In this document: positions 2,445-62,907 of the stretch, one piece after another
How positions within the stretch are numbered: the first letter of the stretch is position 1
Layout of the letters: the number at the start of each line of letters is the position of its first letter
DNA from: Lytechinus pictus
Taxonomy: Eukaryota
Reading direction: 5' to 3'
DNA: 64,000 nt
Assembly (NCBI RefSeq): GCF_037042905.1
Contig: NC_087250.1
Span: 21,888,001-21,952,000, forward strand
Position numbers and translations under genes: made by a program
Notes under the pieces: model-generated
What the model saw: the letters and a program-made list of their open reading frames with translations, nothing else
Databases searched by the model: none
Told to the model about the DNA's origin: nothing

Positions 2445-2461
2445 ATGGCGGCGAATAACGG
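2445..2461 (+). CDS. TDO2: TDO coding exon 1 (MAANNG)
   Basis: caaaATGGCG start context and GTAAG donor at 2462. Phase 2 joins exon 2 in frame; the exon is conserved in the paralogous copy at 62394. Confidence 0.8.
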
Positions 2462-5400
2462 GTAAGACTGTTAATTGTGCGTTTATCTCCCAAAGGATAA
2501 TGATACAGTACCCTTGAACCAGTTAAAATAAATATATAAAGGAAGAAAAAAGTCAAAGCAACAAATTAATGAAGGTGTGAGAAAAAATAATGCATAATGA
2601 TAGGAGCATTAAATGAGATCACTTGTGCAATAGAAATCCTCTAATTGACAACGTCCCTGCTTATTTGGTCAATATTTCACTTGTTGTTATTATTATTATT
2701 TTTTATTTCGTCTGTCGCAAGATCGGATGTTTTTTATGACAGGACATATGACTCATATTTCTCAACACGATTGGCTTTCTTGTGTGATTAGAAAATCAAT
2801 TATTCATTAGAATTTACAAAACTAAACGCTTTGCGCTATATTTTCAGTATATGAAAGGGAGAATTGTACATAATTATGTGACATCACAGATTTTATTCGC
2901 ACTGCGCATTGTAGAATCTCCATGGTATTAGAGTTCTGAACAGGGAATGCTCATAACTCTATCAATATTTGCCCAAGTTTATTCATATTTTTATCTCATT
3001 TTGTTGCTTTCACTGAAGTTAACCTGTTCAAAGGGTTTCATTCTCCTTTATTGTATGTCTTTAATGTATTTAACCAATTTACCTGTCAAAATATCAAAGT
3101 TAATCGTACTTTCAAATAACAAATTACATTTTAATCATTATTCCCATGAAGTGAATGGTATATATTTTATAATATCTATATAATACATTATATAGCATTC
3201 ATGAGGCGCCGAATGTATAGTTGCCTATGCAGTGGTGCAGTATATTACACTGGTGGAAGCTCCAGCTGCTAAAGGCGCTTGGTTCATTCAAGGAATTAAT
3301 CCTGCCGGTTACCCATTCAACTAACCCGGGTTGAGTGTAGCATAGTGTGGGTAAATATCTTGCTTGACCCACGTCCCTCAGACTAAAGGACGAGAGTCAT
3401 AACCACTATTTTACAGGATTATCACGTGATCAACTTTTTATTTCTTTCACTAATAGAAAACCAGAAGTCAAGGAGCCTACGCTGACCTACGAAAACTACC
3501 TGAACATCGAGAAGCTCCTCTCTTGCTTACAACTTCGATGCCCCAAGTTTGGAAAATATGAACACGATGAACACCTCTTCATTACAATGCACCAAGGTAG
3601 GGACTACGAACGTAGAGGGCGTCAATTATACTTTACCGGTGTTGCTGCCATCTACGTTTGTTGCTACTGGATTTATCAAAATAATACTTTATTGGTTAAA
3701 TCTTAAAATCTTCGCTCAAGAGTGTTATCATACGATTTTCATATTATACGATCACCATTGTAATAATGATTGCAATTCGTCATAAGAATCATGGGATCTC
3801 ACTCGAAAACTGTGATTTGAATTCGAATTTCCGAGCGAAGGCGGTATAGGTCGTTAGTGACTTGTCAATCAAAACACTGCATTGCAAATACAAACTACGA
3901 TGAGTGCATGACAATTGTATTATGTACGGAAGTGCTTGAAAGGTCACGTAAGCTCCGCCCCCAAAATATGTTTTGGAGGCCAAGCCTTTCACTCGCAAAT
4001 TCGTACCGTAATATGAGCATGATGAGTGAAACTTAACTGGAATTCACTTCCAGAGTAGAATTTGAATTCGTGATTGTGATTAGCGATCGTGATTCTAGTC
4101 ATGCTTAGTTTGGTTTCGCAAGTGCTAATTATTTGTCATTATTCTTTTTCTTTTTTTACTAGAATCGCCATTCAAATTACGATTTGTTTAACCGTGTGAA
4201 AGGGCGGTATATATACTTTAGATACTTAACCACTAAACATCTCTTGTCAAATCATTGTTGCTATTTCCACCAGCATATGAACTGTGGTTCCGGCAAATGA
4301 TCTTCGAAGTGGACTCCATCCGAGACATCTTACGTGAAAGGCCCTTGGATGAAACCAAGATGCTGTCTGTGAACAACAGGACGGATCGAATTATCCTAAT
4401 CCTAAAGGTAAAATAGCGTTGGATTTATAAATCCCATGTCAATAAGAGATTATAATGAAAAGGAAATATATCTACAAAAAGTAAATATATATAATAGCCG
4501 CGCGATAGTGTTGATATTTTGCACATTCGTATTATATCCATCAATGGCAATTATTAGTTTTTTTGCATTATAAAAGAAGCGCAGCTAATAAGTGAATAAA
4601 TTTATTGGAAAACTGTACATTGATGATCAGTATCATTGAGGACCGGTGTGTTGGATTAGTTGGTAGATAGCCCGTCTCACAGCCGGGAGGTCAGGTGTTC
4701 AAGCCCCGGCCGCGTCAGTCAGACAAAAAGACTTTGGGAGTTGCTACTACACTCTAAAAAAAATATTGGGTAAAAATGCTTCATGAGGGCATTCACGTGT
4801 CCAACCAACATTGGGTATTTTTTACCCAATATTTTTAAAGTGTACCCTGTTTGGCTCTATGGTTTGTCGTTTAACGATATAACAGAAGCTGCAACGTCGA
4901 TTTTGATCATTTTTTTTTGGCCCTAGCCTGTTGGCCTCGTGCTAACACCCCGTAGCGAAAAATAATGTTCTTATCAATCTTTGTTCTTTTTTTTTAGCTC
5001 CTTCTCGGCCACCTTAGCGTCCTGGAAACGATGTTCCCCATGTCATTCTTCAACTTCCGGGATTATCTCTCACCTGCCTCCGGTTTTCAAAGTGCCCAAT
5101 TCCGGGTATTCGAGAACAAAGTGGGAATCAAACCGGTAAATCGAATTCATTGTTTTATCATTTTGAATGTATTCCACTTTTACGTATACATGCATGTTAG
5201 TATTCAGGTCCTTAAGAATATGTTAAAAATTGTTTAATATCATGTTTGAAATGTTTGCATTTCTAGCTTCCATTTCGAGCATCCATTTCCGGGTATTAGT
5301 ATTCGAAAACAAAGTAAATTCAATTAGCGTTACACCTTAATACAAGTTTATGAAGTTTAATTCACTTAAACTTCTAATATTTGATTCAGGTCCTAACGAA

Positions 5401-62393: not shown

Positions 62394-62410
62394 ATGGCAG
62401 CCAATAACCG
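62394..62410 (+). CDS. TDO2: First coding exon of a second TDO paralogue (MAANNR.., partial; remainder not in window)
   Basis: About 62310-62440 aligns with 2360-2490 across 5'UTR, ATG, 17-nt coding part and gtaagactgtta donor. Whether the gene is functional cannot be seen here. Confidence 0.65.
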
Positions 62411-62907
62411 GTAAGACTGTTATTTGTGTATTTTATCAACCAAAGTATTTTCAAAAGATTAGACTGTGGGTATGACTCTCGTCTTTCAATCTAAGGGATG
62501 TTAGTTCGATTCCAAGTCATAGCGTGTATTCATTCAGTCAGAAATATATCCATATTGTGCTGCACTAAATCCGGGTGAGGTGAATAGCAGAGTCAATTTC
62601 ACATCAATTCTTATGTTTATCCATCGAAAATTACAAAGAAAAAAATCCAATTGCTCTTGCTCCCCTTCCTTGTATACCTATTAAAAGACGCACCTGCCTC
62701 TTGCTTGCCACCAGTGATAGTGTCTCATGAAGCTATAAACAGCATGACTTCACAAAATGATGATATTCCGAATACGTTTGGGGTTTCTTTTTAATGTCTT
62801 CAGAAAAATGATTTAACCGGTTTAAACTGTCTCGTTGTATGTTTGCATGTGAATAAAACGAATGTCCATTATGTTAGACAATAACTAAACAATATATATA
62901 ACCAAGA

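Follow-up and report, generated by a model that had tools for sequence, protein, structure and literature searches.

Local copies of a divergent tryptophan 2,3-dioxygenase with replaced exosite residues in the sea urchin Lytechinus pictus

Human tryptophan 2,3-dioxygenase (TDO) possesses, apart from its catalytic center, an exosite in which tryptophan is sandwiched by W208 and P213, with a carboxylate paired to R211 (PMC5071832, 10.1101/793380). The exosite slows proteasomal turnover of the human enzyme, the W208V/R211L replacement abolishes the 0.5 uM binding site, and a triple mutant barely alters catalysis (PMC5071832, 10.1101/793380). The binding-loss mutant described there combined W208 and R211, never R211 by itself (PMC5071832). 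According to a further report, exosite-bound tryptophan shields a C-terminal CK2/FBXW11 phosphodegron of human TDO from degradation (10.64898/2026.01.12.698998).

Duplicated TDO genes are likewise known among animals. Specifically, Strongylocentrotus purpuratus and zebrafish are each described as carrying two TDOs (Ball et al. 2014, PMC4191572), so duplication of TDO, which the original prediction for this locus had set against single-copy TDO in human, mouse, Drosophila, and C. elegans, has precedents. The zebrafish TDOa and TDOb are also animal TDO duplicates, but they are 76% identical and stated to have similar activity (PMC4191572). The second S. purpuratus TDO of that study is probably the XP_011677361-type protein P0004, and the accessible text mentions neither extra Lytechinus copies nor exosite changes (Ball et al. 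2014, PMC4191572). Orthology to the fish genes should not be read into the names “A-like” and “B-like” that RefSeq gives to the urchin proteins, because the fish rows lie elsewhere in our tree. Among titles and abstract openings, with the subscription literature thinly covered, we found no publication that deals with the TDO copies of Lytechinus or with an animal TDO paralogue that has lost its exosite. Urchin enzymes were reportedly, perhaps, assayed by Yuasa and Ball in 2015 in work on TDO activity across species.

The window analyzed here, a stretch of 64,000 nucleotides of the L. pictus genome, harbors one intact TDO gene, labeled “B-like.” The gene was predicted to be complete between 2445 and 15842, and it is: ten coding exons with AG/GT boundaries splice to 1110 nt and 369 aa with 0 internal stops, and the translation is identical to the L. 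pictus RefSeq protein XP_054757031.2 (P0037), a 369-aa protein first matched via a search with exon 4. All exons lie on the plus strand, as does an upstream TATA-like box (2288-2293), which is a motif match only. Coding exon 1 (2445-2461) is followed by exon 2 (3457-3596), which encodes Y17, Y20, F47, and H51, the counterparts of human Y42, Y45, F72, and H76; by exon 3 (4274-4407), with E79 as the kept exosite residue E105; and by exon 4 (4998-5135), with F114, R118, and L121 as human F140, R144, and L147. Exon 5 (6376-6486) precedes exon 6 (7408-7515), in which W182 (human W208) is kept, R211 is replaced by Q185 (7420-7422), and P213 is replaced by H187 (7426-7428). Beyond exon 7 (8725-8833), exon 8 (10918-11055) keeps R276 (human R303) and carries L at F304 and S at P307, exon 9 (11908-11998) encodes the heme ligand H301 (H328) and the GTGGS loop, and exon 10, including the stop codon (15719-15842), ends without an acidic Ser-rich tail, with AATAAA at 15906. 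Intron 7 consists mostly of a 1.4-kb foldback element (8946-10364) with nested inverted arms that are 91-97% complementary. Intron 9 contains a plus-strand ORF of 516 aa (13589-15139) that, by eye, resembles what we take to be a LINE reverse transcriptase.

The product of this gene is expected to function as a heme tryptophan 2,3-dioxygenase, judging from its retained fold and active-site residues. Its AlphaFold2 model has a pLDDT of 88.1, Foldseek aligns it to human TDO 6pyz with a TM score of 0.90, and all three of the exons tested match Pfam Trp_dioxygenase (PF03301). Human residue numbers were taken via a 406-aa bird TDO and checked against a direct alignment to human TDO. By this alignment, the window protein keeps Y42, Y45, F72, H76, F140, R144, L147, H328, GTGGS, and Y350; of these, R144, F72, F140, and L147 presumably bind substrate, and we assume a role for Y350. 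Among the kept residues are the proximal heme ligand H301 (His328), the distal H51 (His76), T315 in the GTGG loop, Y17, and Y20; the roles of His328, His76, the GTGG Thr, and Tyr42/Tyr45 are given in PMC5071832. Human TDO2 (PF03301; PDB 6pyz, 5ti9) has a common fold with the urchin protein at about 46% identity, with H76, H328, R144, Y42/Y45, and GTGGS common to both. Relative to human TDO2, the window protein has R211 changed to Q, P213 to H, F304 to L, and P307 to S, and it possesses neither an MSCPF-type N-terminus nor the acidic Ser C-tail. In its relatives, active-site-adjacent positions vary: the A-like rows (P0002, P0039, P0040, P0041) alter T342 to A, F140 to Y, and Y79 to H. GHAGS takes the place of GTGGS in L. 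variegatus B1 (P0036). It is possible that activity is lost or altered in these proteins.

Placing the gene in a tree with echinoderm TDOs, as had been proposed along with the prediction, separates it from the canonical echinoid clade. Built from 40 rows, the tree unites the window gene with its relatives in a clade that has 100/100 support and a stem of 1.56 substitutions/site and is sister to the canonical echinoid TDOs, Diadema included. Those canonical proteins (XP_063955324 from L. pictus, XP_030836965 from S. purpuratus, XP_071485919 from Diadema) are 447-455 aa long, possess a long Ser/acidic tail, and keep R211 and P213; the window gene differs in all of these features. AU tests on a 20-row subset give p=0.047, a borderline value, for uniting the divergent clade with camarodont canonical TDOs, and p=0.096, thus no rejection, for a single clade of all canonical echinoderm TDOs, as an origin older than the echinoderm classes would produce. 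A duplication just before the echinoid-holothuroid split, with canonical echinoid and holothuroid TDOs together, was rejected in the same subset (AU p=0.006). The six divergent Lytechinus rows make up a group of their own (100/99), within which A-type and B-type proteins from both Lytechinus species group by type. Thus, the later copies either arose after Lytechinus and Strongylocentrotus had diverged or have been homogenized since. We find the divergent clade only in Lytechinus, Strongylocentrotus, and the record P0044. No further members, from Diadema or other echinoderms, are present among the 120 matches listed, in which the best identity of the short ones is 62%, and none occur among 150 TDO representatives listed, 0 of which exceed 52% identity.

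Within Lytechinus, the divergent genes very probably constitute a local cluster. L. pictus has two RefSeq models of the clade on one 28.5-Mb contig (the window gene and the A-like P0039/P0040), and L. variegatus has three on one 47.8-Mb contig (P0035, P0036/P0038, P0002). The S. purpuratus models P0003, P0042, and P0004 read as one gene. P0044 is 364 aa on a 1366-nt contig and 96% identical to P0004, and it is probably a spliced transcript of the divergent clade. The canonical TDO, 452-453 aa, resides on a different contig in L. pictus, L. variegatus, and S. purpuratus. The implication that the ordinary TDO had multiplied is therefore not sustained: the canonical L. pictus copy, of 452 aa, sits on a 57.5-Mb contig and shares 51% identity with the window gene. 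In L. variegatus, two canonical models (P0048, P0167) on one 96.7-Mb contig are 99.8% identical; they represent either a duplication of very recent date or two haplotypes that were both kept.

Two further pieces of TDO lie on the plus strand of the window. One, from 59687 to 60430, consists of the end of intron 7, exon 8 (60060-60197), and the start of intron 8, and self-comparison bears out the predicted isolated exon-8 copy with intron flanks (59690-60430): 10439-11182 aligns to 59687-60320 with E 4e-100, and the homology fades near 60430. It begins approximately 75 nt past the foldback element of intron 7. Both the acceptor and the donor of the copied exon are kept. Relative to the intact exon 8, 12 of 138 nt differ, comprising seven synonymous, four missense, and one nonsense change, the last (CAA>TAA) creating a stop codon at 60146, and divergence is dS 0.28 and dN 0.049. 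Repeats aside, the intron sequence upstream of the copied exon matches its counterpart at 88-90% identity, and that downstream at 80%. The relic peptide lies nearest the B-type rows, at five differences, versus six for B1 and seven for the A-like rows, and all five amino-acid changes in exon 8 fall on the relic side. At the F304 column, the relic has a Phe of ancestral appearance, but this stems from a single C>T, one of seven such changes, and is no basis for dating. The relic attests to a duplication together with its decay. It had been taken to imply at least three ancestral copies, a step the relic alone does not prove, as it need not have been a whole gene: its changes are roughly those that a fragment dead from birth would also have at that intron divergence. 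Three copies are better supported by the three L. variegatus models. Of the lineage-specific birth-and-death expansion that had been proposed, local multiplication with decay is supported by the two L. pictus and three L. variegatus same-contig models, and the relic may stem from either a whole gene or a fragment.

The other piece is a second TDO exon 1, spanning 62312-62448, with 82 nt of upstream homology, coding sequence at 62394-62410, and a donor at 62411. Self-comparison aligns it to 2363-2498 at 85% over 137 nt (E 5e-36), in agreement with the exon 1 and donor predicted at 62310-62440. It keeps the reading frame, from an ATG at 62394 to the donor GTAAGACT at 62411. Three of its 17 coding nucleotides, at 62399, 62402, and 62409, differ from those of the first exon 1; two of the three are synonymous, and the third matches L. 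variegatus A-like. Specifically, the exon ends in CG, so that codon 6 becomes Arg, as in the L. variegatus A-like protein P0002, and codon 6 is Gly in the window gene, in L. variegatus B1, and in S. purpuratus. Because this derived Arg codon is common to it and the L. variegatus A-like gene, the exon is likely the start of an A-like paralogue beyond the window, a link that hangs on one nucleotide. Zero RefSeq L. pictus A-like models use the exon: P0039 and P0040 begin in exon 3, and the older P0041 has another N-terminus. Neither the N-terminus of P0041 nor that of P0035 was found within the window. The upstream homology ends after its 82 nt, with repeats adjoining just upstream and no promoter homology upstream of 62312, and a motif search over the 394 nt that precede the second ATG revealed no TATA-like box.

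The duplication and its relic are ordinary and partly annotated; the exosite change is the one new and testable point. We examined conservation in an alignment of 146 of 179 proteins (14 divergent-clade, 10 canonical echinoid, and 122 other rows); 30 mostly bacterial rows and 3 rows of <140 aa stand outside it. Outside the clade, 114 columns are near-invariant; at seven of these (L48, R211, P213, G280, P307, M315, and K360), no clade row retains the usual residue. R211 and P213 are together present in 132/132 non-clade rows, which are top matches, fish- and mollusc-rich, and not independent, and in 0/12 of the clade rows that cover them; the clade has Q at the first position, fixed in all 12 rows across two genera, and H or R at the second. 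Among 149 further rows, 19 cover the exosite, with R211 in 19/19 and P213 in 18/19. Among 150 diverse TDO representatives, R211 is replaced in 32/144 and both residues in 13/142. Thus, the exosite change is not unique across life, and these counts agree with the published description of the exosite as poorly conserved outside tryptophan auxotrophs. The exosite residues E105, W208, and R303 are kept in the window protein (E79, W182, R276). The acidic Ser C-tail, site of the CK2-FBXW11 phosphodegron in human TDO, is absent from the window clade, as judged by comparing C-termini by eye. The tail is not universal, however, since sea star and sea cucumber TDOs lack it though R211 is kept. From the residues replaced, the divergent TDO has probably lost high-affinity exosite binding, and the pattern suggests that the divergent clade is a TDO that is not stabilized by tryptophan. 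Whether the altered exosite and tail have a regulatory consequence in vivo is a matter on which we lean toward doubt.

The reading we favor, and consider reasonably probable as a whole, is as follows. Sea urchins carry two TDO lineages, and the window contains a member of the second, which evolves fast and was locally multiplied in Lytechinus; decay of one copy or fragment left the relic of exon 8, and the A-like paralogue beyond the window most likely begins with the second exon 1. The window enzyme would be catalytically normal, with the exosite Arg and Pro replaced and the extended termini, the acidic Ser tail among them, missing. The notion is that the divergent clade left tryptophan feedback, such that its level would be set by transcription rather than by tryptophan, and that the canonical copy retains the tryptophan sensor. 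Alternatively, the cluster could be real and the exosite changes could simply reflect weakened selection on a paralogue that is redundant, and be devoid of regulatory meaning; we grant this a substantial minority chance. The clade is indeed faster throughout, with L. pictus and S. purpuratus 79.9% identical for the divergent TDO versus 88.9% for the canonical one, the A-like rows also alter T342 and F140, and several clade gene models (P0035, P0039, P0003/P0042) are partial. Relaxation alone, however, sits poorly with a clade-wide change in only 7/114 near-invariant columns, with an intact active site in the window gene, and with a Q211 fixed in every covering row of two genera. A bolder version of the favored reading is that this urchin subfamily, amplified in Lytechinus, dropped both exosite and phosphodegron to become tryptophan-insensitive, enabling IDO1-like depletion at low tryptophan (e.g., in gut or coelomocyte defense), with the A-like copies drifting toward a changed substrate pocket (T342A, F140Y). 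We regard this as speculative and less likely than not.

The two extra pieces raise alternatives of their own. They could be stray, dead B-type fragments, produced for example by repeat-driven rearrangement, with the A-like gene being separate. Such an origin would account for short stretches of homology, about 750 nt and 137 nt, with repeats at their borders, for the missing promoter homology above the second exon 1 and its absence from the RefSeq L. pictus A-like models, and for the one-sided amino-acid changes of the relic, which fit neutral decay at about 10-12% intron divergence. It is nevertheless improbable, in our estimation, given that the second exon 1 keeps its start codon, frame, and donor, that two of its three coding differences are synonymous and the third is the L. 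variegatus A-like state, and that exon 8 displays a synonymous excess over full neutrality (7/12, p=0.007), an excess that arises partly from selection on the intact gene. Mis-joined haplotypes, the artifact that the original prediction had itself raised, are a very remote prospect owing to the divergence between copies: they differ by 9% in exon 8 and by 13-15% around exon 1 amid unrelated flanks, whereas two RefSeq versions of the window protein are only 0.5% apart, and A-type and B-type proteins occur, grouped by type, in both Lytechinus species. Urchins, which are amenable to laboratory work, thus offer a naturally occurring pair of paralogues, one member with the exosite and acidic tail and the other with both changed and the catalytic site kept. 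The pair permits a direct test of whether invertebrates control TDO turnover through its substrate, as shown for the human enzyme, and of what an enzyme gains by escaping that control.

In the remainder of the window, tblastn and blastn revealed 0 second copies of other TDO exons. Around the relic and the second exon 1, homology to the promoter, exon 7, exon 9, and exon 2 amounted only to shared repeats. When exons were aligned to regions and compared with shuffles, 1/30 alignments stood out, a weak match at 61394-61455 that resembles the exon-10 acceptor region and lies in the right order after the relic. That score was reached by 0/200 and 5/3000 shuffles, and of 66 real tiles it ranks first by a narrow margin (39 vs 36 and 36). 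We do not count it as a relic exon 10; its exon-only score is 29 vs 30 for the best chance tile.

Between the intact TDO and the relic resides an intact, plus-strand MFS_1 gene, monocarboxylate-transporter-like (31178-55300), with four exons (31178-31382, 50493-50636, 53399-54358, 55179-55300) that are open and encode 476 aa. This gene, which the original prediction had not mentioned, interrupts the TDO array. The nearest Atlas clusters to the MFS protein are mostly echinoderm MFS and monocarboxylate-transporter-like proteins, and its exon 3 has no PDB sequence match. A functional tie between transporter and TDO was considered and found no support. Its 19-kb first intron (31383-50492) contains two decayed LINE-like elements on opposite strands, at about 34270-38860 (minus) and 40300-43270 (plus), together with a piece resembling ORF1 that is divided between 44205-44672 and 47152-47658, all labeled by eye. 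Minus-strand ORFs at 28444-29465 display a weak DUF4371 match (E 1e-4) and are presumably a decayed hAT-type transposase. Finally, a repeat at 55752-55793, from a family with copies at 19050, 55753, and 58759 in the window, matches the 14 C-terminal residues of P0040, the X1 isoform of L. pictus A-like; from this match, the C-terminus of that isoform seems to derive from another copy of the family, located elsewhere.
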